Shown here piece by piece: positions 5,374-31,508 of a stretch of 32,000 bases of DNA. This DNA comes from Dubosiella newyorkensis (GTDB lineage: Bacteria; Bacillota_I; Bacilli_A; Erysipelotrichales; Erysipelotrichaceae): contig NZ_MPKA01000054.1 of the NCBI RefSeq assembly GCF_001945605.1, forward strand, positions 1-32,000, in the 5' to 3' direction. Under the pieces are notes generated by a model. The model had not been told where the DNA came from. It saw nothing but the letters and a program-made list of their open reading frames with translations, and did not search any database. Numbering within the stretch: position 1 is the stretch's first letter; each line of letters starts with the position of its first letter. The position numbers were made by a program, and so were the translations under genes.

Positions 5374-5392
5374 AAATGAGAATTCAGCAATC

Positions 5393-5469
<77 letters not shown>

Positions 5470-5487
5470 TTTGCTGAATTAATATGT

Positions 5488-5563
5488 GGGGTGTTAGCTC
5501 AGCTGGGAGAGCACCTGTTTTGCACGCAGGGGGTCAGGAGTTCGATCCTCCTACGCTCCACCA
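5488..5563 (+). tRNA. tRNA-Ala (anticodon UGC), encoded CCA
   Basis: Acceptor GGGGTGT/ACGCTCC with a G3:U70 pair, anticodon loop TTTGCAC, and T-arm GGAGTTCGATCCTCC. Confidence 0.95.
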
Positions 5564-5576
5564 TTTTAAAAACAAC

Positions 5577-5611
5577 GAACACTTTCTTGAAGAAAGTGTT
5601 CTTTTTTTTTT
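5577..5611 (+). terminator. Rho-independent terminator of tRNA unit 1
   Basis: 10-bp stem GAACACTTTC/GAAAGTGTTC with a 5-nt loop and a T10 run. Confidence 0.8.
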
Positions 5612-5766
5612 CGCCACATTATGGTATAATTACAATGCAAGTCGACATCCCTTTCTTTGTTAAAATTCGTCGGCTTGCTTTTTATATGGAGCGAGAAAGA
5701 AGAACAATGAAAATTTAGAAAGATATGATAAAATACTTATACTATCAACGTAAAGAAAAGAGAAGA

Positions 5767-6279: not shown

Positions 6280-6303
6280 AAGTGAGCAATCAGAAAACAA
6301 ATC

Positions 6304-6380
<77 letters not shown>

Positions 6381-6401
6381 TGTATTTGATTGTTTCAATG
6401 T

Positions 6402-6477
6402 GGGGTGTTAGCTCAGCTGGGAGAGCACCTGTTTTGCACGCAGGGGGTCAGGAGTTCGATCCTCCTACGCTCCACCA
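6402..6477 (+). tRNA. tRNA-Ala (UGC), second copy
   Basis: Sequence identical to 5488-5563. The Ile-Ala spacer differs (21 nt versus 18 nt). Confidence 0.95.
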
Positions 6478-6492
6478 TTTTTTAAAATTAAA

Positions 6493-6522
6493 GAACACTT
6501 TCTTAGAAAGTGTTCTTTTTTT
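6493..6522 (+). terminator. Rho-independent terminator of tRNA unit 2
   Basis: Same 10-bp stem GAACACTTTC/GAAAGTGTTC, with a 3-nt loop and a T7 run. Confidence 0.8.
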
Positions 6523-6597
6523 GTTTTCAGTCTTCTCTCTTGTAGAGCGAGTTATCACCGACTAAAATGAACAATGTTCATAACAGGAGGGAAAACA

Positions 6598-7021: not shown

Positions 7022-7054
7022 GAACACTTTCTTAATCGAAAGTGTTCACTTTTT
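7022..7054. terminator. Third copy of the GAACACTTTC/GAAAGTGTTC hairpin (bidirectional terminator-like)
   Basis: The same 10-bp stem with a 6-nt loop, followed by ACTTTTT. An A-run lies upstream. The hairpin overlaps the last codons and the stop of the recombinase fragment. Confidence 0.65.
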
Positions 7055-7628
7055 GCGTTTCACCTGTGTTGAACCGAATGAGCGCAGAGTCTTCATAAAG
7101 CGTGATCGAATCGATCAGCAAATCGATCAGACTCCAAGCATATTTTGGATCGGTTCGGACGTTTTCTTGGACCTCTTTTAATCGATCCATCACCATCGAC
7201 TCACTCAAAACGATCGACTCTTTCTTCTCTTGCTCGATCAAAGCTTGTAGTTGGATCTCTTCTTTTTTGAGCTCTAAAGCCCGTGCTAACTCCGACTCTG
7301 AAACGTTTCCATCCTCGATTCGAGCCATCAGCTTTTCTTTTTCGCGCATGCATGTCTGCAAACGCGCTTCGAACGAAGCCAAAGACAAACGGCCTTGTTT
7401 CTCCTTCGCGTATTCTTGGCTGACGATCTTAGCGATCTTCGCTATGTTTTCCAACGTCAAAAATTCGATCGCACACTCTAGGATGATCGGATCCAAAACA
7501 CCCCTACGAATCTTTTTTACACCATCTTGACTAGGACAAACATAATGATCGCCTTCGATCACAGCTCTCGAATGAGAACATCCACAAAAAACTTTGGGCG
7601 CCAACACATAGTTATAGTTGCGATTCAA
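7032..7628 (-). pseudogene. C-terminal fragment of a large serine recombinase (zinc-ribbon remnant + coiled-coil); no catalytic resolvase domain
   Basis: The segment ..VFCGCSHSRAVIEGDHYVCPS..GVKKIRRGVLDPIILECAI.. is followed by a long E/K/L-rich coiled-coil, as in serine integrase C-terminal domains. The ORF opens with TTG, and nothing resolvase-like lies upstream. Confidence 0.65.
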
Positions 7629-7859: not shown

Positions 7860-7887
7860 GAAGCGTTCTTCGGGACGCTTCTTTTTT
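7860..7887 (+). terminator. Orphan rho-independent terminator (UUCG tetraloop)
   Basis: Stem GAAGCGTTC/GGACGCTTC (9 bp, one G-U pair), loop TTCG, then TTTTTT. No credible CDS lies upstream on the + strand. Confidence 0.6.
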
Positions 7888-8113
7888 CTATTTTCATTCC
7901 CAAAAAAAGCAAAAGCGACAGAAGATCTGCCACTTTTGTATTTTTTAAGTTTATTTAAGGAGAGAGATTATAGAAGAGATTTTTACGTGTCCCTTAACAC
8001 ACCTATAAGGTACCGCTTTCTTATCGATAAACTATGCCTCTAATTTGGGAAACAATGTGACTTTCGCCCCGAATATGTAAAATTACATGAATTTTTAGGG
8101 AGAAGCAATGCTG

Positions 8114-8122
8114 TGATATAAT
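8114..8122 (+). promoter_or_regulatory. Candidate extended -10 promoter (TGaTATAAT) of the ftsX-like/M23/ftsEX operon
   Basis: TGATATAAT ends 21 nt before the ATG at 8144. The -35 is weak. Confidence 0.4.
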
Positions 8123-8143
8123 GTGACCGATCGGAGGATGAAA

Positions 8144-9046
8144 ATGACTCTATTTTTTAGAAGCTTGCCAAGACTTTGGCGCAAAGCCAGCCTAGATCTA
8201 AAACGACATTTTGCCATGACCTTTTCCGCCTCGCTCTCGATCGGGATCGCTTTGCTCATGGCCATGCTTTTGCTGATCAGCGCTGCAAATATTGCCAACT
8301 TCACCCAACATATCGAACAAGAACTTATGATCCAAGTCTCCTTGCAGCCAACGCTCGATGCTTCACAACAAGAAAACATCCAGCAACAGCTCGTCAACAT
8401 CCAAGGCGTCAAGAACGTCACCTATTCCTCCAAAGAAGAGGAACTCGACAAATTGATCCAAGAAAACGGAGACATCTTCGCCCAATACGCTCAAGAAGGA
8501 AGAAACCCCCTCTATAATGTCTTTTTGATCGAAGCCGATCACGCCGACCAAATCGAAACGATCTCAAAAAAAGCGAAAACGATCCATGGCGTGATCGACG
8601 TCAGCTATGGCGGAGGCGCGATCCAAAAACTCATCGCCCTCTTTAAAAATGTCCGCATATGGGGCACTCTCTTTGTCGCCCTCATGATCCTGCTAGCCAT
8701 CTATCTCATACGAAATACGATCAAAATGACGATCCATGTCCGTAAGGACGAGATCGCCATCATGCGCCAAGTCGGCGCCTATAATTGGTTCATCACGGTC
8801 CCATTCGTATTGGAAGGAATGATCATCGGCCTAAGAGGCGCCTTGATCCCCGCCCTGATCGCCGGCATTGGCTATCCGCTCTTATATCAAACGATGAACG
8901 GTGTCTTTTTATCCGACATGTTCATCCTTCTTTCACCGATCCCCTTTATTCTCTATCTTGTCGCTTTTTTGCTTTTGTTAGGCTTAGGCGCAGGATTGGT
9001 CGGCTCCTATCTAGCCGTTAGAAAATATGTGAGATTTATCCGATGA
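8144..9046 (+). CDS. FtsX-like ABC permease paralog with no adjacent cognate ATPase gene upstream
   Basis: Overall pattern shared with the ftsX at 11118: N-terminal TM segment, extracellular domain with SSKEEEL, YGG, IMRQVGA, and three C-terminal TM segments. RBS GGAGGA lies before the ATG at 8144; the track start at 8123 is GTG. Confidence 0.85.
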   Translation: MTLFFRSLPRLWRKASLDLKRHFAMTFSASLSIGIALLMAMLLLISAANIANFTQHIEQELMIQVSLQPTLDASQQENIQQQLVNIQGVKNVTYSSKEEELDKLIQENGDIFAQYAQEGRNPLYNVFLIEADHADQIETISKKAKTIHGVIDVSYGGGAIQKLIALFKNVRIWGTLFVALMILLAIYLIRNTIKMTIHVRKDEIAIMRQVGAYNWFITVPFVLEGMIIGLRGALIPALIAGIGYPLLYQTMNGVFLSDMFILLSPIPFILYLVAFLLLLGLGAGLVGSYLAVRKYVRFIR

Positions 9047-10422
9047 ACACATTCAAAAAAACAAGCGCAGCCATCCTAGCGCTCTCTTTGAGCTTGTATT
9101 CCTTCTCTACGCCCCTCTTTGCCCAAGACTACTCCAACACCGAAGAATGGTATACGACATGTTCAAAACCCCAAACATCGCAAGAGGGCGTAAAAGCTTG
9201 CCAAGGCTTTCAAGAATACCAAAACAAACGCAAAGAAGAATTGGCCCAAAGCATCCAAAGCTTCAACGAATCGATCCAAACCCTTGAAAACGACACGAAC
9301 CAAGTCGCGGCGCTTGCCCAAGAACAAAAAGCGCTCGCCGAACAACTCAATACCCAGATCGCCGAAAAAGAAGCGGCCATCCAGCAAATCGAAGCCAACA
9401 TCCAAACGCTCCAACAAGAAATCGAAGCCAAACAAGCCGAAATCGAAGCGTGGGACGCCCAGATCAAAGAAAGGATGCGCTTTGAACAAGCCAACTTAGG
9501 CACCAATATGATCATCGACCTCGTCATGGGCAGCAAGAACCTCAACGACATGCTCCGCCGCATCAGCGGCATCGAGCGCATCACCGAAGACGACCAAGAC
9601 CAGATCGAACGCTTGAACGAGCTCAAAGCCGAGCTCGAACTCCAAAAATCCGAAATGGACCGCCTCAAACAAGAACAAGAAAGCCAAAAGACGCAGCTCG
9701 AAGAACAAAGAGCCCAAGCCCAAGCTTTAGAAGAAAGCTATAATAAAATGGTCGAACAATACCAAGCCCAGATCCTTGAGCTCCAAGCCAAAAAGCGCGA
9801 AGCCCAAATCGATATGGATTCGATCCGCAACTTTACGATCTCGACCGCCATGGGCAACGTCATGATCGCTAGCGTTCCAGGCTTTAGCGCCCCGATCGCA
9901 GGGGGAGGAAAGACGGCAGGCACATGGGCTTATCCTGGAGGAGGCCTTCACTTAGGCTTAGATTGGGGCGTTCCGATCGGAACACCCGTCTATGCTCCAG
10001 CCGATGGACTCATCCTCTACGCCAACAATCCCGTTCCAAGCAATTCCGGCTATTTAGGAAACTGGAGCGGCTACCCATATGGCGGAGGAAATACGATCGA
10101 AATGCTCTGCAACGTCAATGGAACGTTGTACGCGATCTCCTTTGCCCACTTAGCCCAAGAAAACTTTATGGTCAGCGCCGGACAAAGCGTCGCGCAAGGC
10201 CAGCAGATCGCGGCCACAGGCAATTCCGGAAACACATCCGGCCCCCATTGCCATATCGAAATCTACAATCTAGGACAAATGAGCGTCGAAGAAGCCGTCA
10301 GTCGCTTTTCGAAAAACGCCGACTTCGCTTGGGGAACGGGATGGAGCGGCACAGGAACTTCTTGCGATGCGACAGGGGGCAGGACCCCGTGCCGAGAGCG
10401 TCCCGAAAAATTCTTCTCTTAG
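9043..10422 (+). CDS. Secreted coiled-coil M23 metallopeptidase (EnvC/PcsB-like peptidoglycan hydrolase or activator)
   Basis: Signal peptide ..STPLFA/QD, then about 240 aa of Q/E/A-rich coiled-coil. The C-terminal M23 motifs are HLGLDWG, PVYAPADG and GPHCHIE. The start overlaps the upstream stop (ATGA). Confidence 0.9.
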   Translation: MNTFKKTSAAILALSLSLYSFSTPLFAQDYSNTEEWYTTCSKPQTSQEGVKACQGFQEYQNKRKEELAQSIQSFNESIQTLENDTNQVAALAQEQKALAEQLNTQIAEKEAAIQQIEANIQTLQQEIEAKQAEIEAWDAQIKERMRFEQANLGTNMIIDLVMGSKNLNDMLRRISGIERITEDDQDQIERLNELKAELELQKSEMDRLKQEQESQKTQLEEQRAQAQALEESYNKMVEQYQAQILELQAKKREAQIDMDSIRNFTISTAMGNVMIASVPGFSAPIAGGGKTAGTWAYPGGGLHLGLDWGVPIGTPVYAPADGLILYANNPVPSNSGYLGNWSGYPYGGGNTIEMLCNVNGTLYAISFAHLAQENFMVSAGQSVAQGQQIAATGNSGNTSGPHCHIEIYNLGQMSVEEAVSRFSKNADFAWGTGWSGTGTSCDATGGRTPCRERPEKFFS

Positions 10423-10434
10423 AAAGGAGAGTCT

Positions 10435-11121
10435 ATGATCGAATTTAAAGATGTAAGCAAAGCCTATCCGAATGGAGTGCACGCCCTCAATCACGTCAAT
10501 CTCAAAGTGGAAGATGGCGAATTCATCTACGTGATTGGCGCTACTGGCTCTGGAAAAAGCACGATGATCAAGCTGCTCAATGGCGAAGAAGTGAGCGACT
10601 CTGGACAACTGATCGTCGATGGAGTCGATGTAGGCGCCCTCAAGCATCGGAAAGTCCCGGCCTATCGACGCAATGTCGGCTGCATATTCCAAGATTATCG
10701 CCTTCTTCCAAAGCTGACTGTCTATGAAAATATCGCCTTCGCCTTAGAAGTCGTAGGCATGCGTAAAAAAGACATCAAAAACAGAGTGCGCGAGATTCTC
10801 GAACTTGTCGACTTGAAAGACAAGGCTAGAAGCTATCCGGACGAGCTTTCAGGCGGCCAGCAACAAAGGGTCACGATCGGAAGAGCGATCGCCAACCGAC
10901 CAAAGATCTTGATCGCCGACGAGCCGACCGGAAATCTAGACCCTGAAAAAAGCTTAGAAATCATCCAGCTGCTCGAAAAGATCAATCAAAATTTCGGCAC
11001 GACGATCGTCATGGTCACCCACGATAAAGTGCTCGTCGACGAATTTAAAAAACGAACGATCATCTTGGATGGCGGCTATGTGATCCACGACTCTAGAGTA
11101 GGCGGGTACCGCTCCGTATGA
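10435..11121 (+). CDS. ftsE: Cell-division ABC transporter ATP-binding protein FtsE
   Basis: 228 aa. The N-terminus is MIEFKDVSKAYPNG.., Walker A is GATGSGKST, the signature is LSGGQQQRV and Walker B is ILIADEPTGNLD. Confidence 0.92.
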   Translation: MIEFKDVSKAYPNGVHALNHVNLKVEDGEFIYVIGATGSGKSTMIKLLNGEEVSDSGQLIVDGVDVGALKHRKVPAYRRNVGCIFQDYRLLPKLTVYENIAFALEVVGMRKKDIKNRVREILELVDLKDKARSYPDELSGGQQQRVTIGRAIANRPKILIADEPTGNLDPEKSLEIIQLLEKINQNFGTTIVMVTHDKVLVDEFKKRTIILDGGYVIHDSRVGGYRSV

Positions 11122-12020
11122 GAAAATGGTGGACATTGCTTGGATACGAGATCAAATACGCGTGGCTTGGCTTACGGCGCCACCTGCTCGTATCGCTTTC
11201 GGCCATGAGCGCCGTCATGGTCACCCTCTTTTTGATCGTCGCCTTTTTGATCGTCGGAGTCAGTGTGGAATCTTTTTCAAAAAGTGTCGAACAAGATCTT
11301 TCGATCCATGTCGTTCTTGATCCGGCCATACAAAGCGAAGAAGAGCTTCAGTCGATCCAAGAGCAGATCGAATCGCTTTCTCAAAGCGATCACGTCGTCT
11401 TTTCCAGCAAAGAAGAAGAACTGCAGCTCATGATCGAAGAAAAGGGAGAAGCCTTCCAGCTCTATGAAGGGGAAGAAAATCCTTTGGGGAACGCGTTTTT
11501 TGTCTACGCCAAAGACGGAGAACAGATCCAAGAACTTGCCAAAAAGATCCGAGAAATTCCTGGGGTGGCGCATGTGGCCTATGGGGGAAAGAGCGTGACC
11601 GGACTGGTGGCGCTGTTGGCAAAAGTGCGAACGATTGGCATCGTGGCGATCGTTCTTTTGCTCATCCTTTCATTCTATTTGATTTATAATACGATCCGTA
11701 CTACCATTTACTCGAGATCGGACGATATTATTATCATGCGACAAGTGGGCGCCGAAAATTCATTTGTCAAACGGCCATTTGAAATCGAAGGAATCATGAT
11801 CTCGCTTTGCGGAGCGATCATCCCCTTTGGACTAGTCGCCTATGGATATCCTAAGCTGTATGAAAGCTTGCATGGCTATTTGTTCGCGCGCATCCTTGAA
11901 CTCGTGCCGGTCCATACGATCATCGCCCTATCGGGGAGCGCTTTGATCGTATCCGCCATCTTGATCGGATGGTTTGCCAGCTTTTTAGCCGTGAATAAAT
12001 ACATACGCGAAAAACGATAG
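11118..12020 (+). CDS. ftsX: Cell-division ABC transporter permease FtsX
   Basis: 300 aa with FtsX topology and motifs. ATGA overlap with ftsE. Confidence 0.9.
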   Translation: MRKWWTLLGYEIKYAWLGLRRHLLVSLSAMSAVMVTLFLIVAFLIVGVSVESFSKSVEQDLSIHVVLDPAIQSEEELQSIQEQIESLSQSDHVVFSSKEEELQLMIEEKGEAFQLYEGEENPLGNAFFVYAKDGEQIQELAKKIREIPGVAHVAYGGKSVTGLVALLAKVRTIGIVAIVLLLILSFYLIYNTIRTTIYSRSDDIIIMRQVGAENSFVKRPFEIEGIMISLCGAIIPFGLVAYGYPKLYESLHGYLFARILELVPVHTIIALSGSALIVSAILIGWFASFLAVNKYIREKR

Positions 12021-12038
12021 GGCCATCCTATCGTTTTT
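12014..12038 (+). terminator. Terminator or attenuator hairpin between ftsX and the S41 protease gene
   Basis: 8-bp stem ACGATAGG/CCTATCGT with a 5-nt loop, then TTTT. It overlaps the ftsX stop codon. Confidence 0.55.
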
Positions 12039-12059
12039 GGAATAATAAGGGGAGAAAAC

Positions 12060-13508
12060 ATGAAGAAAACAAAAAAACCAAGCGAAAGACAGAGCGCTAA
12101 GCAAAAAGGACTCATCCTCCTTTTATGTGTTGCTTGTTTTGGGGCCGGCGTGAGCGTGCCCATGTTGATCGAGAAGGCAAAAGGCATCGACAGCCAAGAA
12201 TTCTCAAAATTAGAGACGGTCTATTCGCTTTTAAAGAATCAATGGTACTATGGCGCGCAAATCGAAAATTTGGAGGATCAATTGATCGAGCAATCGATCG
12301 TCGGGATGAGCAGCAACGAGATCGATCCACACACGAACTATCTTGGCCTTGATCAAGCCAAAGATTTTTCGGACGCGCTAAGCGGAAGCAATGTCGGCAT
12401 TGGCACGGGCTTTTATCGCGACGCCGACAACAATATGGTCGTCAAAAGCGTCTTTATCGATTCGGCCGCTGATCAAGCGGGCATTCAAGAAGGCGATGTC
12501 ATCACCAAGGTGGGCTCGAAAATGGTCAGCGACATCTCCAGCGAAGATTTGATCACGCTCATTCAAAATCATGATGGCCAAAATCTAGACATCACCTTGA
12601 TGCGGAATGGAGAGCCGAAAAATGTCCACGTCGTTCCGGGCGTGTATGATTCGACCGTGATCTGCCGTGAATTTGACGGATATGGAGAAATCGTTCTTTC
12701 TAGCTTTTCCGAACATAGCGGACAAGACTTTAAAAAAGCGGTCGAACGCTTGCAAGAAAAAGGGATCAAAAAGATCATCATCGACCTTCGCAACAATACG
12801 GGCGGTTATCTCGACGCGGCCATTCAGATCGCTTCTTCCCTTCTTCCTAAGGAAAGCATCGTGTTCAAGGAAAAGACACGCAATGGAAAGATTGAAGAAA
12901 GCGAAGTGCTCGATTCGTATACGCCAGCTCAATTTGATCAGATCGTCCTCTTGCAAAACGAAAATAGCGCTAGTGCTTCGGAAGTGCTCATTGGCGCTTT
13001 GAAAGACAATCTCAAAGACAAGGTGACAACGATCGGTTCGACAAGCTATGGAAAAGGAACGAAGCAAGTGCTCGTCCCTTTCAGCGATGGAACTTCTTTA
13101 AAATACACAGAATCGGAATGGCTCACACCTTCTGGTGAGTCGATCAACAATAAAGGGTTCGCGCCCGATGTCGAAGTCGAAGATACGGCGATCCGGCAAT
13201 CGTATTATTCCACCCAAGAAGAAGATCTTGAATTTGAACAAGATAGCGTGAATCCCAACGCGCAAGCTTTGCAGCTCTTTTTACAATATCTTGACTATCC
13301 TGTGGATCGGGTGGATTCCTATTTCTCGGCCCAATCGGCCCAAGCGCTCAAGCAGTTCCAGGAAGATCATCAATTGGAGGCGAATGGCAAAGTCGACGCC
13401 AAGACGTGGGAAGTTCTTGAACAAGAGGTCAGCTTAAAAATGAATCAAAAAGAGATGGAGGACGATGTTCAGCTTCAAAAGGCGATCGAATTGATCAAAG
13501 CAGAATAG
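12060..13508 (+). CDS. S41 family C-terminal processing peptidase (CtpA/CtpB-like) with PDZ domain and C-terminal peptidoglycan-binding repeat
   Basis: N-terminal TM anchor; PDZ-like segment (GIQEGDVITKVG); S41 core (IIDLRNNTGGYL, ASASEVL, GTKQ); PG_binding_1-like tail (ALKQFQEDHQLEANGKVDAKTW). Confidence 0.9.
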   Translation: MKKTKKPSERQSAKQKGLILLLCVACFGAGVSVPMLIEKAKGIDSQEFSKLETVYSLLKNQWYYGAQIENLEDQLIEQSIVGMSSNEIDPHTNYLGLDQAKDFSDALSGSNVGIGTGFYRDADNNMVVKSVFIDSAADQAGIQEGDVITKVGSKMVSDISSEDLITLIQNHDGQNLDITLMRNGEPKNVHVVPGVYDSTVICREFDGYGEIVLSSFSEHSGQDFKKAVERLQEKGIKKIIIDLRNNTGGYLDAAIQIASSLLPKESIVFKEKTRNGKIEESEVLDSYTPAQFDQIVLLQNENSASASEVLIGALKDNLKDKVTTIGSTSYGKGTKQVLVPFSDGTSLKYTESEWLTPSGESINNKGFAPDVEVEDTAIRQSYYSTQEEDLEFEQDSVNPNAQALQLFLQYLDYPVDRVDSYFSAQSAQALKQFQEDHQLEANGKVDAKTWEVLEQEVSLKMNQKEMEDDVQLQKAIELIKAE

Positions 13509-13541: not shown

Positions 13542-14204
13542 ATGGATCATGATAGAAACAAAAAAACATGGAAGCCCGTATTGAATTCGATCAATGCGCA
13601 TTCCAACACGATATCTTTATATATTGCGCTTTTTTCGCTGATTTTCAGTATCTTTACTTTTTATATGACCGTCAAGATCGAGGAGCATTCGAACTATTTA
13701 TCGGATTTGCAAGCGCCTTGTATTTATAAGCTCAAGGTGAGCGGGAATGTAGAGTTTCCGAAAGTGGATGCGGGCGCCTCGACGATCGAGCTGGATCAAA
13801 CGCGGATCGTTTTAGCGATCACGAGCGGTTCGGTGCTCGATATTGGCAACGTGGTGATGTCTGATGATGGCTACATTGAAAGGATCCGTTCTTGGTCGAT
13901 CGCGCAGCATCAGCCTGCCAACAAGGAAATGGAAGCAGAAGAAGAAAAGCTCGATGGAACGACGACACTTTCGTATCGGCCGGGTTTATGGAACTATGAG
14001 GCTTCTTCTAAAAGTGCGTATACGGTGTTGTTCGTAAAGACAGGAAACAACACGAGCGATATTTGGCTGCTTGTGCTCGATGAAAACGGGAAGCTGAGTA
14101 TTTATGGCTACGACGCGTTGGCGATCGATCCAGACAGCAAGTATCCTAAGGCGTTCGAGGCTTATCGGAAGGCGCGTGAATTTTTAGTCGCCAACGACAT
14201 TTGA
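13542..14204 (+). CDS. Hypothetical membrane-anchored protein
   Basis: One N-terminal TM segment ([21 protein letters not shown]). RBS AAGGGGG. Tightly packed between the ctp and uvrB genes. No family recognised. Confidence 0.7.
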
Positions 14205-19056: not shown

Positions 19057-19471
19057 AGGGGAATAAGAGGGTGTCTTGAGCTAATTTTTGAGCGATCGGC
19101 AAGTCTGCTGGAAGCCAGTCGATTGAAAGAAGGTCAGCGGGCAAGACCCATTTGGCGGCTTCATGCTCCACCAATTGGAGCTCTCCGTTTTTGATCGTTC
19201 CAATAAAACAATCCATCGATAAAAGGAAAGAAGGATATTCATAGTCGATGTGCTCATAAAATTTTTGGATAGAGGTATCGACTTTAAGTTCTTCTTTGAG
19301 TTCCCGAACAAGAGCTTCTTCCTTGGTTTCATGGGGTTCTACTTTCCCTCCAGGAAACTCCCATCCTCCTTTAAATTCGCCATATCCGCGTTGCGTTGCT
19401 AAGATCTTTCCGTTTTGAATGAGGATCCCAGCGACGACGTGGATCTTTTTTTTAATTTGTGATGTAGTCAT
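19055..19471 (-). CDS. MutT/NudG-type Nudix (deoxy)nucleoside triphosphate pyrophosphohydrolase
   Basis: Nudix box GGWEFPGGKVEPHETKEEALVRELKEELKV. ATG at 19471 gives 138 aa (MTTSQIKKKIHVVAG..). The track start at 19564 would sit 113 nt inside the upstream gene. Confidence 0.85.
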   Translation of the reverse strand: MTTSQIKKKIHVVAGILIQNGKILATQRGYGEFKGGWEFPGGKVEPHETKEEALVRELKEELKVDTSIQKFYEHIDYEYPSFLLSMDCFIGTIKNGELQLVEHEAAKWVLPADLLSIDWLPADLPIAQKLAQDTLLFP

Positions 19472-22370
19472 AAATGTCTGAGCGGACTGGATGTTCGAGT
19501 TCGTATTCGATTTCAACGGCGCTTTTGCCGCCAACAGTAACGGTTTTATAATGTCCAGTCGCAAAAATCCTTCCTAAGTAGTAGAATTCTTTTGATTCTT
19601 TGTCGTCTTTGTTTTTGCGAACGAATAAATACATATTCACGTTTTTTTCTTTGGCTTTAAGCGCGATCGAAACATCGCTTGAATCGGGAGTCCTGCCTTG
19701 TTTTGAGATTGCTTTTAAAAGACTTGGCGAAATAAAACGGTCTTCGTATTTTGTCGTTTCTGAAATCGTCTCTTCCTTCACATAATTAATATAGATAGGA
19801 TATGTTTTTGTTTGTTCATCATACTTATATCCGCCAATATTCAAAGCGACTTCTCCTTTTTCCCAATTCAATAAACGGCCGACATCATCGTACGTGTACT
19901 TCGCATATAAAACAAAAGGCGAATTATCACTTGAATGCAGATATTTTGTTTTATAAAGATAGATACCATACTCGATCACTTCTTCGATACTTTCTTTGAA
20001 ATCTTTGTTTTTGAGTAAAGAATCAAAGTGAGAAGAGATCGTATAATCGTTTCCTTCTTCCTTTAAAAAGATACAATCTTTATACGTATCCTTTCCCGTT
20101 CCTGTGATGTAGTTGTTCGTAAATTGATTGACAAGATTGATCGTACCACTATGATCGAGATCAAGTCCATAGTCTTCTTTTAAGCAAGATGCAAAATGAG
20201 CAAAAGAAGGTTTCTTTTTGGAAAGAAGTTCTTTTAAAAGAAGAAGCTCATGGATCCTTTTTCCAGAAGCAAAACGCTTTGATATGTATTCTAAAATCTT
20301 TAATTGTTCTTTGGAAAAGGAGAATGGATACTCTTTTTCATATTTTTGTAAGTAAGCTGGATAGGAACCAAATTTTTGGAGGATCTTGGAAGGTTCGATT
20401 TCACCAAATTCTTCAAAATCCATCAAGGTCGGTATTCTACCGAGCATTTGTTTTAACTGCAAATAAGAATCACGAATCAATTTTGTCGTTTGAAGCTTTG
20501 CTTGATCGATCGATTCGAAGATTTTTTCTCGCGAGATCCGATCAAAATGGATCGTTGAGCTTCCGGGCAATAATCGATCGCCTTCTAAAACGAAGTGGCG
20601 GATCGTATCTTTGTTGTAGGTGCGATCGCTAGAAAGAGCGATCGGGATCATATAGTTGCTTTGATAATTACCAATAAAATCTAAGATCACGACATATTCT
20701 TTTTCTTTATATTTTCGTAAGCCTCTTCCAAGTTGTTGAATAAAGATGATCGGACTTTCTGTAGGACGTAGCATGATGATTTGATTGATACTTGGAATAT
20801 CGACGCCTTCATTGAAGATTTCAACAGTAAAAATATAATCCAAACTGTTTTCTTTTTCATTTTGTGCAAGACGTGCGATCGCTTGTTCTCTTATTTGTGA
20901 AGAATCTTCACCTGTTAAATATGTCGTATGAAACCCTTTTTGATTGAACCGGTTCGAAAGTTCTTTGGCTTCTTCTTTCCGAGAAACAAAGATCAATCCT
21001 TTTGGACGAGGACCACTATATCCATAGTATTGGATCTTTTCGATGATATAGTTCACGCGATCTTCTTGGATTAGATAGTTAAAATTTCTGAGATCTTCTT
21101 TTTCGTAAAGATTTCCATCAACTAAAAAATCGGTGATCCCAAAATAATGGAAAGGACAAAGTAAATTTTCTTTTAAAGCTTGATTCAAACGGATCTCATA
21201 GGCGATGTTATGATCGAAAAGTGCATAGAGATCATAATTGTCTCTTCGTTCTGGAGTTGCTGTCATCCCTAACAAAAGTTTTGGTTCAAAATAATGAATT
21301 ATTTTTTGATAGCTGTATGCACCAGCACGATGAACTTCATCGATGATGATCGCATCAAACTCTCTTGGATCAAGATTTGATAGGACATCATCTTTAGAGA
21401 CGAATTGGATCGTCGAAAATACATAGTCTGCCCTTGAGGATCGATGCTTGGAAGTCAATTTTCCATAGGTTCTTTCTTCTTTGAGAACGACTTGAAAGCT
21501 GTTGAGTGCTTGTTCTACGATCACGTCACGATGAACAAGAAAGAGGATCCGCTGAAAATGGAGCTCGCGCATCGCAAAAGCAGCAGCAAATGTTTTCCCT
21601 GTCCCTGTAGAGCTGATCAATAAAGCCCGTTTTTGCCCATGATCGATGAGCTTTTTTAAATTTTTGATGAACGCGTGTTGCATCGTGTTTGGCTCAAGCT
21701 TTTGAACGATTGTTTTCGTATCCGTATGAGGTAAAGTACTGTTGAATGTTTTATGATAGTTTTTAAACTCTTCTTGATAAAAATCTTTGAATTCCACATA
21801 ATCAAAACTCATTTCAGAATTCCAATACGTATTGAATTCAAAGAGAAGAGATGTGCTTAAGCTTCCTGTTTCTAAAGCAACGATGCGAGTATTCCATTCT
21901 TTATTCACTGTCAGCGCGGATTGGGTTAAGTTAGAGCTTCCAATGATTGCCCGAACTTGATTACCTCTTTTGAAAATATAGCCTTTTGTGTGAAAGCCGG
22001 GAGCGTTTGGCTGAACATGGTAGAGCTTGACTTCAATATTTTTTAAGTTCGAAAGACGCTCAAGTGCCGATGGATCAGAAAAACATAAGTAATCGGTCGT
22101 TAAGATCTTTCCGGGAATGCCTTTTTCTTCTAGTTCCTTGAATACTTGGAGAAGAGGAGTAAGGCCGCTCATGGTGATAAAAGCCGTGCTAAAACAAAAG
22201 GAATCACAATTCTTCAATTCTTCTTCAAGGGCGACAAGGACCTTTTTGCCTTGAAGAGGATCGTTTTGGAGAAGCTGTAATTCTAGGTCGGGACGAGAAT
22301 AATAATCTTGATCGATCAAAGATGTTTGTACTGAAGCTAATAATTCTTCTTTATGGATCGTAGTATACAT
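19452..22370 (-). CDS. SauUSI-like PLD-nuclease / SF2 helicase-ATPase / DUF3427 protein (putative Type IV modification-dependent restriction enzyme)
   Basis: 972 aa. PLD motif FHTKGYIFKRGNQVRAIIGSSNLT; Walker A SSTGTGKTF; DEVH box; motif VI QQLGRGLR; C-terminal DUF3427-like region (..FVLYAKYTYDDVGRLLNW..FYYLGRI..). RBS AAGAGGGA. Confidence 0.85.
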   Translation of the reverse strand: MYTTIHKEELLASVQTSLIDQDYYSRPDLELQLLQNDPLQGKKVLVALEEELKNCDSFCFSTAFITMSGLTPLLQVFKELEEKGIPGKILTTDYLCFSDPSALERLSNLKNIEVKLYHVQPNAPGFHTKGYIFKRGNQVRAIIGSSNLTQSALTVNKEWNTRIVALETGSLSTSLLFEFNTYWNSEMSFDYVEFKDFYQEEFKNYHKTFNSTLPHTDTKTIVQKLEPNTMQHAFIKNLKKLIDHGQKRALLISSTGTGKTFAAAFAMRELHFQRILFLVHRDVIVEQALNSFQVVLKEERTYGKLTSKHRSSRADYVFSTIQFVSKDDVLSNLDPREFDAIIIDEVHRAGAYSYQKIIHYFEPKLLLGMTATPERRDNYDLYALFDHNIAYEIRLNQALKENLLCPFHYFGITDFLVDGNLYEKEDLRNFNYLIQEDRVNYIIEKIQYYGYSGPRPKGLIFVSRKEEAKELSNRFNQKGFHTTYLTGEDSSQIREQAIARLAQNEKENSLDYIFTVEIFNEGVDIPSINQIIMLRPTESPIIFIQQLGRGLRKYKEKEYVVILDFIGNYQSNYMIPIALSSDRTYNKDTIRHFVLEGDRLLPGSSTIHFDRISREKIFESIDQAKLQTTKLIRDSYLQLKQMLGRIPTLMDFEEFGEIEPSKILQKFGSYPAYLQKYEKEYPFSFSKEQLKILEYISKRFASGKRIHELLLLKELLSKKKPSFAHFASCLKEDYGLDLDHSGTINLVNQFTNNYITGTGKDTYKDCIFLKEEGNDYTISSHFDSLLKNKDFKESIEEVIEYGIYLYKTKYLHSSDNSPFVLYAKYTYDDVGRLLNWEKGEVALNIGGYKYDEQTKTYPIYINYVKEETISETTKYEDRFISPSLLKAISKQGRTPDSSDVSIALKAKEKNVNMYLFVRKNKDDKESKEFYYLGRIFATGHYKTVTVGGKSAVEIEYELEHPVRSDIYDYITN

Positions 22371-23905: not shown

Positions 23906-23924
23906 GCGATCAGCAGCCTTTTTT
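23899..23924. terminator. Bidirectional terminator between the MBL hydrolase gene and folT
   Basis: Stem CTGCTGA/TCAGCAG with a 4-nt loop. T6 lies downstream on the + strand, and a T-rich run follows on the minus strand. Confidence 0.7.
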
Positions 23925-24468
23925 ACAGCTTGAGTTGCGGTTTGATGCGTGCGCACATCCGCAATAAAAGATAGAGCATCGTGCAGTCGATCGGGAACAT
24001 GATCACATTTTTTAATAAGCGAGCCCCCACTAAAACAAAGAAGCTATCGCCATACATGATCGACATCCATAATGAGTTCAAAAATAAGTAGTTGATCAAA
24101 ACGACGAGCAACCTTGCGACGAGCACTCTCCACACCTTGACAGGCTGTTCATAAAAGAACGAGGAAAAAATAAAAGCAAGCAAGATGGCATTGAGCGCAT
24201 AACCAGGAAAATACGGACCATCAGGATGCATCGCATAACCGATAAAATCCATGATCAACCCAGCAATCATATTCGGATAAGGTCCATAAAAATAACAGCT
24301 TGCGGCTGTGGCTAAAAAGCCAAAAGTGATTCGCAACGTGGGCGCTAGGTAAATGTTGAACATGTCGAGAATGACTTCAAGAGCACAGAACATGGCGACT
24401 CCCACGATCACTTTCGTGTTGGTGATGGCGCGAGCATTGTCTTTCAACATAACAAAGTATTGATGCAT
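23923..24468 (-). CDS. folT: ECF transporter S component, folate family
   Basis: 181 aa from the ATG at 24468, preceded by GGAAAGGAGG. FolT-like pattern (LRITFGFL, YGPYP, PYFPGY, LWMSIMYG). A THF riboswitch lies upstream. Confidence 0.85.
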   Translation of the reverse strand: MHQYFVMLKDNARAITNTKVIVGVAMFCALEVILDMFNIYLAPTLRITFGFLATAASCYFYGPYPNMIAGLIMDFIGYAMHPDGPYFPGYALNAILLAFIFSSFFYEQPVKVWRVLVARLLVVLINYLFLNSLWMSIMYGDSFFVLVGARLLKNVIMFPIDCTMLYLLLRMCARIKPQLKL

Positions 24469-24528
24469 AAAAAAACCTCCTTTCCCTCGTGCAAAGAAAA
24501 AAGAGGTCGTATTTCTTATTTCTTGGCA

Positions 24529-24629
24529 ACAGCGGGATGCAGAAAACCAATCGCAAGTTTCGTTTCCTTTTCGTTTTAGAACCAACTCCCCGTGTTCTAA
24601 ACACTTAACGCTTGTTTTCTTACTCTGCT
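24529..24629 (-). promoter_or_regulatory. THF (tetrahydrofolate) riboswitch aptamer
   Basis: The minus strand reads GCAGAGUAAGAAAACAAGCGUUAAGUGU...GCAUCCCGCUGU. This matches the conserved GAGUAG..GCGUUAAGUG..GCAUCCGCU core as I recall it. P1 is GCAGAG/CGCUGU, keeping the expected A-G mismatch with compensatory changes. Confidence 0.75.
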
Positions 24630-27977: not shown

Positions 27978-27992
27978 GTTTCCATAAAACAA

Positions 27993-28217
27993 AGAAAAGA
28001 AGTAGTACAGGCGGAGCGGTTGTTAGAGAAGTGACGGTTGGTGCAAGTCATTGAACTTTACGTTTGGAACGTGTCTTGGAGTTGCATAGTCGATGGATAC
28101 GGAGGCTATGATCGTGAATTCGCGTTAAGAATGAGATGTCATCCATATCGAGTGGATGGAAGTTTGGTGGTACCGCGTAATGTTTACGTCCTTTCGTTTC
28201 GAGGGGACGTTTTTTTG
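27993..28217 (+). promoter_or_regulatory. T-box riboswitch leader, specifier read as CGU (Arg), with intrinsic terminator
   Basis: Stem I has AGUAGUA (28001-28007), the AG bulge AGAGAAG (28025-28031) and the distal loop GGUUGGUGCAA. The specifier loop is GAA-CGU-G (28067-28073). The T-box motif AAGUUUGGUGGUACCGCG is at 28160-28177. The terminator has a 10-bp stem (28186-28210) plus T7. Confidence 0.85.
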
Positions 28218-28246
28218 TGCCTGTATCGCAGAAAAGGAGAAGGAAT

Positions 28247-29029
28247 ATGAATAAACTTTTAAAAATTGGTGCTGCGGCCATGCTTGCCGCTGCAACTTTA
28301 GTGGGATGCTCATCTTCGAAAAGCTCAGAAGGATCGGAAGAAAAACCGCAAGAGATCTTGATCGGTATTTCTCCAGACTATATGCCTTATGAAGGTTTGG
28401 ATGAAGATGGAAAACTCGAAGGATTCGATATCGACATGACCAAATGGTTGTTCGATTATATGAACGAGAATGGTCACAATTACTCGTATGAGTTTAAGGA
28501 GCTTTCGTTCGATACGATCATTACGGCCCTTCAATCTGACCAGATCGATCTAGGAATTTCTGGTTTCACATACGATGAGGAACGGGAAGGCTTGTTCTCC
28601 GATTCTTATTATGATTCTGCACAAGTCATGGTCGTCAATGCGGATTCCGATATTCAATCATCGAAAGATCTGAACGGAAAACTTGTCGGCGCTCAGCAAG
28701 GCGCGACAGGCGAGGATGTTGCCAACGATATTGAGGGAGCTGAAGTCCAAGCGATGCAAGATGTAAAAGTATTGATGGAATCTTTAAAAGCAAAAGGTTT
28801 GGATGCGGTCGTGATCGACCAAGCGGTTGCGGACAATTATGCGGTCAATGGCGATTATAAAGTATTGGATGAAAAACTTCTGGATGAAGAGAATATCATC
28901 TATACGACAGAGAAGCACAAAGACTTATTGGATGACATCAATAAAGCAATCGAAGCATTCAAAGCGAGCGATGATTATCAAACACTCGTAAAGAAGTGGT
29001 TTGGCGCTTCTGGAGAAGTCAGTGAATAA
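28247..29029 (+). CDS. Amino-acid ABC transporter substrate-binding lipoprotein
   Basis: Lipobox LVGC after MNKLLKIGAAAMLAAAT. Family 3 SBP pattern (GFDIDM, GISGFT). ATG at 28247 follows AAGGAGAAGG. Confidence 0.9.
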   Translation: MNKLLKIGAAAMLAAATLVGCSSSKSSEGSEEKPQEILIGISPDYMPYEGLDEDGKLEGFDIDMTKWLFDYMNENGHNYSYEFKELSFDTIITALQSDQIDLGISGFTYDEEREGLFSDSYYDSAQVMVVNADSDIQSSKDLNGKLVGAQQGATGEDVANDIEGAEVQAMQDVKVLMESLKAKGLDAVVIDQAVADNYAVNGDYKVLDEKLLDEENIIYTTEKHKDLLDDINKAIEAFKASDDYQTLVKKWFGASGEVSE

Positions 29030-29693
29030 GGTTTTCTCCCCCGAAAATATTGAATTTTTGCTCAAAGGTGCCGGCGTAAGTATTGCGCTGGCCTTTGGTG
29101 CTTTAGTGATCGGGGCACTGATCGGCGTGATCGTGGCGGCCGGTAAATTATCGAAAGTCAAGATCTTGAATTGGTTGTCGAATATATATGTAGAACTTTT
29201 TCGCGGAACGCCAATGCTGTTGCAAATCCTCTTCTTTTATTTAGGAGTACCTGTCCTTATTTCGATGGTCACTGGAGCTAGAGTTCGAATGAATGTCTAT
29301 GTCGTCGCGCTTGTCGCCCTTTCTTTGAATTCGGGCGCCTATCAAACGGAATTGATCCGTTCAGGGATCCAAGGCGTGGATAAAGGACAATGGGAAGCAT
29401 GTGAAACGTTAGGGATTTCCTATTGGACGATGATGAAAGAAGTCATCTTGCCACAAGCGTTCAAACGCATCGTGCCGCCATTGGTTTCAGAATTCATCAC
29501 GCTGATCAAAGATTCGTCTTTAGCATCTGTAATCGGAACCGGAGAGTTGATGTATCGAACACAAGCGTTAGGTGCCCGCTATTACAACTACTTATATCCG
29601 CTGTTGATAGCGACAGTATTTTATTTAGTGATGACACTTTGTGTATCTTGGATCGGCAAGAAAATAGAAAAGAGGTTAGCGGTCAGTGATTAG
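29022..29693 (+). CDS. Amino-acid ABC transporter permease (His/Glu/Gln/Arg/opine family)
   Basis: EAA-type loop ..[30 protein letters not shown]... GTG at 29022 follows GGAG at 5 nt. TTG at 29001 is the alternative start. Confidence 0.85.
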
Positions 29694-30417
29694 AGCAGAA
29701 CATATTTCAAAAAGCTTTGGGAAGCTGCATGCCCTCAATGACGTATCCCTCAATGTAGAAAAAGGAGAAGTTGTTTGTTTGATCGGACCTTCTGGTTCGG
29801 GAAAATCAACGTTTTTACGTTGCATCCATGGACTAGAGATCCCGGATTCAGGAAGTCGATATTTGGATGGTGAATTGATGGATCCAAACGACAAGAAAAA
29901 ATACGGCGAACAAAGAGAACGTATGGGATTCGTATTCCAGCATTTTAATTTATTTCCAAATAAGACGGTGTTGGACAATTGTACTTTAGCGCAGCAGTCG
30001 GTTTTAAAACGAACAAAAGAAGAAGCCGAACAAGTGGCTTTAGAATATTTAAAAAAGGTAGGTCTTCTTGATAAAAAGGATTCATATCCTAATGCGTTAT
30101 CAGGAGGTCAAAAGCAGCGTGTGGCGATCGCGAGAGCCTTGTGCATGAATCCGGAAATCATGTTGTTCGATGAACCGACTTCAGCGCTTGATCCTGAAAT
30201 GATCAAAGAGGTGCTTGAAGTCATGAAAGATCTCGCTTCTCAAGGGATGACGATGATCGTAGTGACTCACGAGATGGGGTTTGCCCGCAAAGTTGGAAGC
30301 AAAGTCGTATTCTTAGAGGCTGGAAAGGTGGTCGAAGAATCCGATTCCGAATCATTCTTTACGAACCCGAAAAGCGATCGTGCTAAAGACTTTTTAAGCA
30401 AGGTATTCTATGAATGA
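29686..30417 (+). CDS. Amino-acid ABC transporter ATP-binding protein
   Basis: Walker [10 protein letters not shown], signature [15 protein letters not shown], Walker [12 protein letters not shown]. The GTG start overlaps the permease stop. Confidence 0.92.
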
Positions 30418-31508
30418 AGCTGAAGGATTTTTATTGTGAACAATGGATGACGGCGTATGAGAAAGAGGCTGTCTACAATATGACGGATACTTCTTTTTCG
30501 GCGCTCTCTTTCCATGATCTCTTTGATTCAAAGAGTTTAGAGGAATTTGATCCTTTGCTGGATTATGGAGAGATCACAGGAGATCGAGGTTTGAAAAAGG
30601 AGATCGAGCGGCTATATACAACGAACGATCGCGCTTTGACCTTCTGTCATGGGGCTTTGGAAGGAAATGAACATGTCATGAGCACCCTTCTCGAGCCGGG
30701 GGATCATGTGATCGCTTTTCGGCCCGGCTATCAGCAATTTTATGAGTATCCGCGTTCGCTTGGTTGCACAGTGGATGTGCTGGATTATGAAGAAGAAAAT
30801 GGCTGGAAGCTTCCTTTTGATGCGATCGAGAACACGATTTGCGAAAAGACGAAGATGATCGTTTTGGCAAGTCCTGCCAATCCAACAGGAACGACGCTTA
30901 CTTTAAAAGAATGGGAGCGACTGATCGAATTATGCAAGTCGCATTCTATTTATATTTTGTGCGATGAAGTCTATCGTGGATTGATGCAGACACCTTCTGT
31001 TTCTGATCTTTATGAGTACGGGATTTCGACAGGTTCGTTGTCGAAGGTCTATGCTCTTCCTGGCTTGCGTTTTGGGTGGATCCGCGCTCGAGAAAGTGTG
31101 ATCGATAAGATCAATATTCGGCGAGATTATACGTTTATTTCGACTGGGCCTTTGGTCGACGGCTTGGCTAAAAGGGCATTTGGAAAGAAAGATTGGATCT
31201 TGAAGCGGAGTTGGGCGCTTCTTGCGGAAAATAGGAAGATCTTAGCGGAGTGGCTGGCTTTTGATCCTCGTTTTTCGATTCGACTGTACGAAGAATCTCC
31301 GGTTGCCTTTTTGAAGTATGATTTTGATTGGCTATCAAAAACGTTTTGTCTGCAAGCTCTCAAGGAAGCGGGAATCTTTTTTGTGCCAGGCAGCTGTTTT
31401 GGCTGCGAATATCATGTGCGGCTAGGTTTAGGAAGAGAGAGCGATTCCTTTAAAAAGGGCTTATACCAATTATCGCATTGGCTTGATGAAACGTTGAAAA
31501 AGACATAA
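30414..31508 (+). CDS. Class I/II PLP-dependent aminotransferase
   Basis: 364 aa with the [15 protein letters not shown] lysine motif and ANPTGT. ATGA overlap with the ATPase gene. Confidence 0.85.

Follow-up and report, generated by a model that had tools for sequence, protein, structure and literature searches.

What can a single cell wall locus do with two different FtsX proteins when it encodes one FtsE ATPase to drive them and one peptidase for them to act on? We addressed this question at a locus of Dubosiella newyorkensis contig NZ_MPKA01000054.1, of which a stretch of 32,000 nucleotides (nt; hereafter the window) was analysed; all coordinates are positions in it. FtsEX is a widely conserved switch that licenses wall cleavage in bacterial growth and division. 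In the list of open reading frames (ORFs), the locus consists of five closely packed plus-strand genes at 8144-13508, with protein lengths in amino acids (aa):

8144-9046, + strand: ftsX1, encoding X1 (300 aa), the FtsX paralogue of the X1 orthogroup; directly 5′ of the M23 gene, which it overlaps
9043-10422, + strand: gene for a secreted coiled-coil M23 (LytM-type) peptidase (459 aa)
10435-11121, + strand: ftsE (228 aa), encoding the sole FtsE-type ATP-binding cassette (ABC) ATPase at the locus
11118-12020, + strand: ftsX2, encoding X2 (300 aa), the FtsX paralogue of the X2 orthogroup; its start and the stop codon of ftsE overlap
12060-13508, + strand: gene for an S41 C-terminal processing protease with Pfam S41, PDZ and PG_binding_1 domains

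What is new here is the conserved set of two FtsX proteins, one FtsE and one M23 protein with a predicted intact catalytic site, which occurs in two gene orders; the component families are all known. A full-text search of the literature found no description of a paralogous, second or heterodimeric FtsX, and in the papers examined the terms "FtsX1/FtsX2" and "two FtsX" refer to the two protomers of a homodimer. The assembly that we favour, at a probability of roughly 45%, is an FtsE2-X1-X2 heterodimer that would resemble LolCDE and clamp the one M23 protein.

The ORF list and domain searches bore out the gene order proposed in the first-pass annotation of this DNA (an ftsX-like gene, an M23 peptidase gene, ftsE, ftsX and an S41 protease gene). 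Direct reading of the sequence likewise located the ATGA stop/start overlaps that it had listed, at 9043-9046 (X1/M23) and 11118-11121 (ftsE/X2). The remaining gaps are as short as it had described them, with 12 nt between the M23 gene and ftsE, containing an AAAGGAG ribosome-binding site, and 39 nt between ftsX2 and the S41 gene. The longest ORF for X1 opens at a GTG at 8123, and the ATG at 8144 sits behind a GGAGGA ribosome-binding site (~8133-8138).

Two diverged FtsX proteins and a coiled-coil M23 peptidase

Both X1 and X2 contain the Pfam domains FtsX_ECD (PF18075, residues ~62-153) and FtsX permease (PF02687, ~175-296), and both exceed the 225-bit cut-off of the NCBIfam model NF038347 (FtsX_Gpos), with 288.2 and 269.5 bits, respectively. 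Each has the complete FtsX architecture of a first transmembrane helix (TM1), an extracellular domain and three C-terminal TM helices. X1 aligned end to end with solved FtsX chains, the closest being M. tuberculosis 8idb_C (residues 22-296, E=5.5e-18), and its weak matches in the PDB include LolE and LolF. The two proteins are 38% identical to each other over 290 aa (E=7e-67). The ratio of nonsynonymous to synonymous substitution rates (dN/dS), computed pairwise and only for pairs with unsaturated dS, was 0.03-0.09 for X1 and 0.04-0.09 for X2, similar to the values for the M23 and S41 genes. This strong purifying selection indicates that neither ftsX copy is decaying, and pseudogenisation of one of them was ruled out on these grounds. 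The first-pass description of two clear but diverged FtsX paralogues was therefore correct, both being above the FtsX cut-off, conserved and under selection.

The differences between the paralogues were mapped on an alignment of 62 sequences, 31 of each. In 83 columns, one or both paralogues reach 90% conservation or more without sharing the conserved residue. The paralogues are most alike in the cytoplasmic TM2-TM3 loop, the coupling-helix region that contacts FtsE in solved complexes, with 59% identity versus 25-37% elsewhere. Because this loop is the best conserved region between the paralogues, both copies are expected to fit the same FtsE. The N-terminus and TM1 are the most divergent region (25%), yet are 54-61% conserved within each paralogue. 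Both helical lobes of the extracellular domains retain invariant motifs that are paralogue-specific. Conservation is also complementary, the membrane part being better kept in X1 and the extracellular domain in X2.

The protein encoded between the two ftsX genes matched CC_PcsB (PF24568, 40 bits) and Peptidase_M23 (PF01551, 63.4 bits against a gathering threshold of 28.7) in Pfam. Its N-terminus reads as a signal peptide, with a hydrophobic stretch ending in FAQ. In an AlphaFold2 model of moderate confidence (mean predicted local distance difference test score, pLDDT, 69), two very long helices (47-162 and 167-260) precede a beta-rich M23 domain (289-411), giving the EnvC-type layout of a signal peptide, a long antiparallel coiled-coil hairpin and a C-terminal LytM domain. 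The top Foldseek match of the model was full-length V. cholerae EnvC in the FtsEX complex (8tzl_E), and E. coli EnvC bound to FtsX (6tpi_A) was also matched. At the sequence level, the closest solved proteins are the active M23 enzymes zoocin A, ShyA and LytM. The protein scored 15.2 bits with the EnvC equivalog model NF008644 (cut-off 270) and 17.9 bits with the PcsB equivalog model NF046104 (cut-off 450), the coiled coil alone matching PcsB, and Pfam and NCBIfam searches found no CHAP domain in it.

Across 23 orthologues, and in relatives further removed, H303 and D307 (HxxxD), H369, and H402 and H404 (HxH) do not vary; the orthologues likewise share invariant HLGLD and HCH motifs. The degeneration that characterises EnvC's LytM domain is thus absent, the metal-binding and catalytic residues being kept. 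The invariant catalytic His and Asp residues and the closeness of the active peptidases among solved sequences argue that the protein is an enzyme and not merely an activator. It looks, from its sequence and predicted model, like a protein of EnvC-like shape with a working M23 active site, in agreement with the EnvC/PcsB-style coiled coil and intact catalytic site that had been noted before. In public annotation, both ftsX genes are named plain FtsX, and the M23 protein is called "murein hydrolase activator EnvC" by some sources.

Within the coiled coil, conservation peaks at the hairpin tip (approximately residues 150-195), which we take to be the equivalent of the place where the FtsX domains bind EnvC in solved structures. 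Invariant cysteines are found in two pairs, C40/C53 close to the N-terminus and C441/C450 in the tail; like PCRERPEKFF (449-458), a C-terminal motif past the M23 domain that is nearly invariant, they are kept even in relatives with a single FtsX. The cysteines may form disulfides, or the C-terminal tail may be a docking element.

The FtsEX-EnvC systems of E. coli, V. cholerae and P. aeruginosa (8tzl, 8hd0, 8i6s, 6tpi) have in common with this locus a type VII ABC complex built from FtsE and FtsX, clustered genes, and a secreted partner that combines a long helical-hairpin coiled coil with a LytM/M23 domain, EnvC being the best structural match. In contrast to the invariant catalytic residues found here, EnvC's LytM domain is degenerate and non-catalytic, and EnvC activates amidases; the known complexes contain a homodimer of one FtsX, whereas two paralogous ftsX genes are present here. 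In the Gram-positive systems FtsEX-PcsB (S. pneumoniae), FtsEX-CwlO (B. subtilis) and FtsEX-RipC (M. tuberculosis, 8idb), FtsEX directly controls a coiled-coil hydrolase. The CC_PcsB match is a likeness to the first of these, and the closest solved FtsX chain, 8idb_C, comes from the last. However, their catalytic domain is CHAP or NlpC/P60 rather than M23 and they have a single FtsX rather than two. As is generally known, cwlO and pcsB are unlinked to ftsEX, whereas the partner gene here lies inside the operon.

Gene orders in relatives and the origin of the second ftsX

The order X1-M23-ftsE-X2-S41 was found in 27 of 29 species-representative genome loci, usually followed by uvrB; the two exceptions are a locus cut off after X1-M23 (L026) and a Patescibacteria outlier. 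The same order is present in Faecalitalea (L030), in three more contigs (L034, L035, L042) and in human-gut metagenome contigs L044-L046, while the human-gut metagenome loci L047 and L048 are cut off or fragmented. Such recurrence shows that the arrangement is not a chance one. In all, more than 35 loci share this order, and the genera represented are Dubosiella, Faecalicoccus, Holdemanella, Merdibacter and Faecalitalea. Orthologues of X1 with 46-75% identity occur in Dubosiella, Faecalibaculum (by named protein only), Holdemanella, Faecalicoccus and Merdibacter, and X2 orthologues were found likewise; the 90%-identity cluster that holds X1 has Dubosiella newyorkensis FtsX as its named members. 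Dubosiella, Holdemanella and probably Faecalibaculum, the carriers, are commensals abundant in the gut; they are studied for their effects on the host, and their cell biology has hardly been explored.

Three arrangements can be distinguished among the relatives. The canonical one (type A), (secA-prfB-)ftsE-ftsX-M23-S41-uvrB with one ftsX, is present in an Erysipelotrichales metagenome-assembled genome (MAG; L038) and in about 45 diverse metagenome loci. Type B, ftsE-Xa-M23-Xb(-S41-uvrB), was found in L037 and L041, and type C, X1-M23-ftsE-X2-S41, in this window and its clade. The gene content of the two-FtsX loci is constant despite the change in order, with two ftsX, one ftsE and one M23 gene. 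In the window, X2 overlaps the ftsE stop codon and X1 is one gene away from ftsE, yet the X1 orthologue adjoins ftsE in both type B loci. Many type A loci have the opposite multiplicity, with one ftsE-ftsX pair followed by two to three tandem coiled-coil M23 paralogues and often then by S41 (L058, L061-L063, L067, L068, L070, L071, L073, L075, L078, L079, L081, L085, L086, L088, L090, L091, L096 and L101). In these loci, one FtsX apparently serves several M23 partners, and the pairing of one FtsX with one hydrolase, on which the first-pass annotation had relied, does not hold generally.

The ATPase of the locus scored 273.8 bits with the NCBIfam FtsE equivalog model TIGR02673 (cut-off 264.85) with full-length model coverage, and matched ABC_tran in Pfam. 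Within the sequence in view (32 kb here and about 15 kb per relative), every two-FtsX locus of either gene order contains exactly one ftsE, so the earlier observation of one ftsE beside two ftsX genes was true of every locus examined. The two gene orders have reciprocally kept one ftsE each, which suggests that a single FtsE suffices for both FtsX proteins. A second ftsE-type ATPase encoded elsewhere in the genome could instead serve one of them, "two permeases, one ATPase" then being true of the locus only, and the limited extent of the sequence in view leaves room for such a gene. We consider this highly improbable, since no locus of either gene order has a second ftsE, the only other ABC ATPase in the window is part of a T-box-controlled amino-acid importer, and the FtsE-contacting loop is the region in which X1 and X2 are most similar. 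It is also opposed by a mirror-tree comparison over 31 genomes, based on distance matrices for FtsE, the coiled coil, and the extracellular and membrane parts of the FtsX proteins, in which FtsE distances followed the membrane parts of both paralogues about equally (partial r of 0.44 and 0.36).

The canonical Firmicutes cluster ftsE-ftsX-M23-ctp(S41) comprises the same four families with the same overlapping junctions, likewise has secA-prfB upstream and uvrB downstream, and encodes orthologous M23 proteins with the same catalytic residues. It differs from the clade of the window by the second ftsX and the displaced ftsE of the latter, and from the sister arrangement by the second ftsX that there follows M23. 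The two overlapping junctions in the window correspond to canonical ones, X1-M23 to X-M23 and ftsE-X2 to E-X. FtsX trees were built by neighbour joining only; a 162-taxon tree was poorly resolved, and a reduced set of 83 taxa was bootstrapped. In the latter, Xa grouped with X1 and Xb with X2, the two groups being apart in about 75-83% of replicates. The phylogeny and synteny check suggested earlier thus gave synteny conserved across genera and two separate orthogroups, but not resolved deep nodes, and the tree leaves undated whether the duplication post-dates the split from single-FtsX Erysipelotrichales.

These comparisons of gene order and sequence point to one old ftsX duplication inside the canonical operon, within one branch of Erysipelotrichales, with two orthogroups, one ftsE and one M23 gene kept. 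In the simplest history, the duplication would have given ftsE-X1-M23-ftsE-X2, from which loss of the second ftsE would yield type B and loss of the first type C. The first-pass annotation had proposed that X1 and the M23 gene were inserted ahead of ftsEX. This proposal fails because single-FtsX Erysipelotrichales and about 45 other loci have ftsE-ftsX-M23-S41, and the ftsE-X1-M23-X2 order also exists. Recent horizontal insertion of X1-M23 was a separate candidate and was ruled out by the synteny across genera, with secA-prfB upstream and S41-uvrB downstream. Since the X-M23 junction is canonical and ancestral, the coupling of X1 to M23 is inherited and is not evidence that X1 is dedicated to the M23 protein, as had been read from their translational coupling; nor did the coiled coil co-vary preferentially with the X1 extracellular domain in the mirror-tree comparison.

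In an Erysipelothrix sp. MAG (L040, 1752-4561), an ftsX-M23-S41 block has no ftsE immediately upstream; a divergent methyltransferase gene and ~800 nt of uncalled sequence lie before ftsX. The ftsE gene may be elsewhere or may have been lost on this short contig.

Assembly of the two FtsX proteins

Solved FtsEX complexes have a stoichiometry of two FtsE, two FtsX and one EnvC, the periplasmic domains of the two FtsX protomers contacting EnvC differently and the FtsX dimer interface lying on TM1 and TM2 (PMC10214136). A 2024 review describes FtsEX only with two copies of each subunit (PMC11627006). An asymmetric ligand on a symmetric dimer is a setting in which a duplicated subunit can specialise.

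Six features of the locus lead us to favour an X1/X2 heterodimer. Every locus, in both gene orders, has one coiled-coil partner and one ATPase, and X2 stays in the operon with X1 and the M23 gene in both orders. The N-terminus and TM1 differ most between the paralogues and stay conserved within them. The motifs of the extracellular lobes are paralogue-specific and the conservation of the two proteins is complementary. Finally, the coiled coil is best conserved at its hairpin tip, presumably the binding site.

Homodimeric LolF (of LolDF) and heteromeric LolCDE (LolC/LolE with LolD2) provide a precedent within the same ABC type. LolCDE is a type VII (MacB-like) system whose operon encodes two paralogous permeases and a single ATPase, like the locus described here, and LolC and LolE arose by duplication of a homodimeric ancestor, after which their periplasmic domains took different binding roles. 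The function differs, being lipoprotein extraction for Lol and mechanotransmission to a wall hydrolase for FtsEX, and the X1/X2 heterodimer is one that we infer. By analogy with LolD and LolC/LolE, one FtsE dimer would drive an X1/X2 heterodimer in the membrane, and the two unlike extracellular domains would hold two unlike faces of the M23 hairpin coiled coil. ATP binding and hydrolysis by FtsE would then switch on a catalytically competent M23 endopeptidase at sites of wall growth or septation. The two unlike ways in which the protomers of a symmetric FtsX dimer contact their partner would thus be divided between two specialised genes, in parallel with the step from LolF to LolC/LolE. That the heterodimer is obligate, which would make it the first heteromeric FtsEX, gating an active M23 endopeptidase rather than an amidase activator, is a tentative proposal, for which we would give somewhat less than even odds.

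If the heterodimer exists, it would be the second case of a transition from homodimer to heterodimer within type VII ABC systems. Two diverged FtsX proteins with one FtsE and one partner would separate the halves of the interaction genetically, so that each could be mutated alone, and asymmetry, force transmission and partner specificity would become directly testable.

Several observations weigh against this assignment. The X1/X2 contact is deduced from sequence patterns and from analogy. In the mirror-tree comparison, raw correlations were all 0.74-0.95 and driven by shared phylogeny, partial correlations were small, and the weak signal does not discriminate a heterodimer from two homodimers. 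Many relatives have one FtsX with several M23 paralogues, so that partner multiplicity needs no heterodimer. The count of one ftsE applies at the level of the locus, and a second copy may lie outside it. With respect to the duplication, the deep FtsX nodes are not resolved, a paralogue clade that excludes the single-copy L038 FtsX appearing in only 40% of replicates, and the two-ftsE intermediate E-X-M23-E-X was not found among 80 metagenome loci and about 40 others. Finally, Gram-positive FtsEX partners such as CwlO and PcsB are often encoded elsewhere, so that a homodimeric X2 could have an unlinked partner.

The last point leads to a model in which two homodimeric complexes share FtsE, FtsE2-X1_2 running the adjacent M23 protein and FtsE2-X2_2 running an unlinked hydrolase or activator, or divisome recruitment. 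X1 is always directly 5′ of the M23 gene and usually overlaps it, but this adjacency is ancestral and silent on exclusivity. The motifs of the two extracellular lobes are conserved but different, as would fit different ligands, and the conserved coupling loop would allow either protein to bind FtsE. The loci with one FtsX and several M23 genes show that partner diversification is common, and the unlinked cwlO and pcsB genes are in line with a distant second partner; such a partner, however, was seen in no locus. The coiled coil co-varied no more with the X1 than with the X2 extracellular domain (partial r of 0.07 and 0.30, respectively), and in neither gene order has X2 left the operon of X1 and M23, despite divergence to 38% identity. 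We regard this arrangement, the main rival of the heterodimer, as unlikely, although not far-fetched, and the computed evidence presented here does not separate it from the heterodimer. If two complexes do share one ATPase, the locus would exemplify ATPase sharing between wall-remodelling modules. The first-pass annotation had likewise proposed two FtsX modules on one FtsE. The shared FtsE is retained in our interpretation, and the X1/X2 heterodimer, which was not considered there, is the assembly that we rate likeliest.

Transcription signals and other features of the window

Two features are candidate transcription signals of the block:

8114-8122, + strand: candidate extended -10 element, TGaTATAAT (consensus match only)
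12010-12038, + strand: hairpin with a perfect 12-bp stem and a U-run at its end, overlapping the ftsX2 stop codon

A simple two-hexamer promoter scan gave no call at the TGaTATAAT element. Terminator-like hairpins at 7860-7938 (one of them at 7860-7881) divide this element from the region further upstream, and the block from ftsX1 to the S41 gene looks, from these signals, like one transcription unit starting at X1.

This layout bears on whether the two FtsX proteins are partially redundant or condition-specific, acting as homodimers or mixed dimers on the same M23 protein, with two copies retained for the sake of dosage or of regulation that differs between, for example, growth, stationary phase and sporulation-like states. 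Both score as full FtsX, are under similar selective constraint and share one operon and one candidate promoter, as redundant copies might. However, the 12-nt gap and the overlaps leave no room for an internal promoter, and with one apparent promoter differential regulation is unlikely. Identity of only 38% and 83 differently conserved columns argue for specialisation, and redundant copies are rarely retained across so many genera. Redundancy is thus an improbable explanation, and the heterodimer remains the one that we prefer.

The hairpin noted earlier, with its T-run, is real: its folding free energy is -16.9 kcal/mol (z = -4.8 versus shuffles; RNA fold), and it failed the criteria of a simple terminator scan. 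Like hairpins, with other loops, lie on the same terminal codons (AAA CGA TAG) in the Dubosiella group (L001-L003), in L013 and L014, and in Faecalitalea (L030). They are absent in relatives whose X2-S41 gap is only 8-17 nt. Judged by the sequence, the hairpin may plausibly be a partial terminator or attenuator, specific to the lineage, ahead of the protease gene. The protease itself scored 234.5 bits with the NCBIfam prc subfamily model TIGR00225 (cut-off 218.6). Its gene is the canonical 3′ neighbour of the ftsEX-M23 cluster and is also present in single-FtsX loci.

Two ORFs flank the block. One of 220 aa (13542-14204), found between the S41 gene and uvrB, has a hydrophobic segment at its N-terminus, matches no family and is present only in the Dubosiella-group loci L001-L003. 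The other, of 198 aa (7032-7628, - strand), lies between a DUF2871 gene and the ftsX1 promoter region; it had no Pfam match and is also called in identical metagenome contigs.

Further upstream, a tRNA-Ile(GAT) and tRNA-Ala(TGC) pair occurs twice, at 5389-5612 and 6300-6528, ~912 nt apart and 98-100% identical over the tRNAs, each copy being followed by a terminator-like hairpin. No rRNA gene was found in the window, although rRNA spacers are the normal location of this pair of tRNAs. At the start of the window, an IS21-type element (105-2394, - strand) encodes, at 105-851, an IstB-like ATPase and, at 829-2394, a transposase whose C-terminal domain is of the Mu-transposase type.

Downstream, a 972-aa protein (19452-22370, - strand) combines a PLD-like nuclease, a ResIII/helicase core, an HNH-associated repeat and DUF3427. 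The GC content around its gene is 0.36-0.40 versus 0.45-0.51 around ftsEX, and it may be a defence or mobile-element gene. A tetrahydrofolate (THF) riboswitch (24528-24629, - strand) lies upstream of an energy-coupling factor (ECF) S-component gene (23923-24585), and a T-box leader (27983-28196, + strand) lies upstream of the amino-acid ABC importer (binding protein, permease and ATPase) and an aminotransferase gene (28217-31508).

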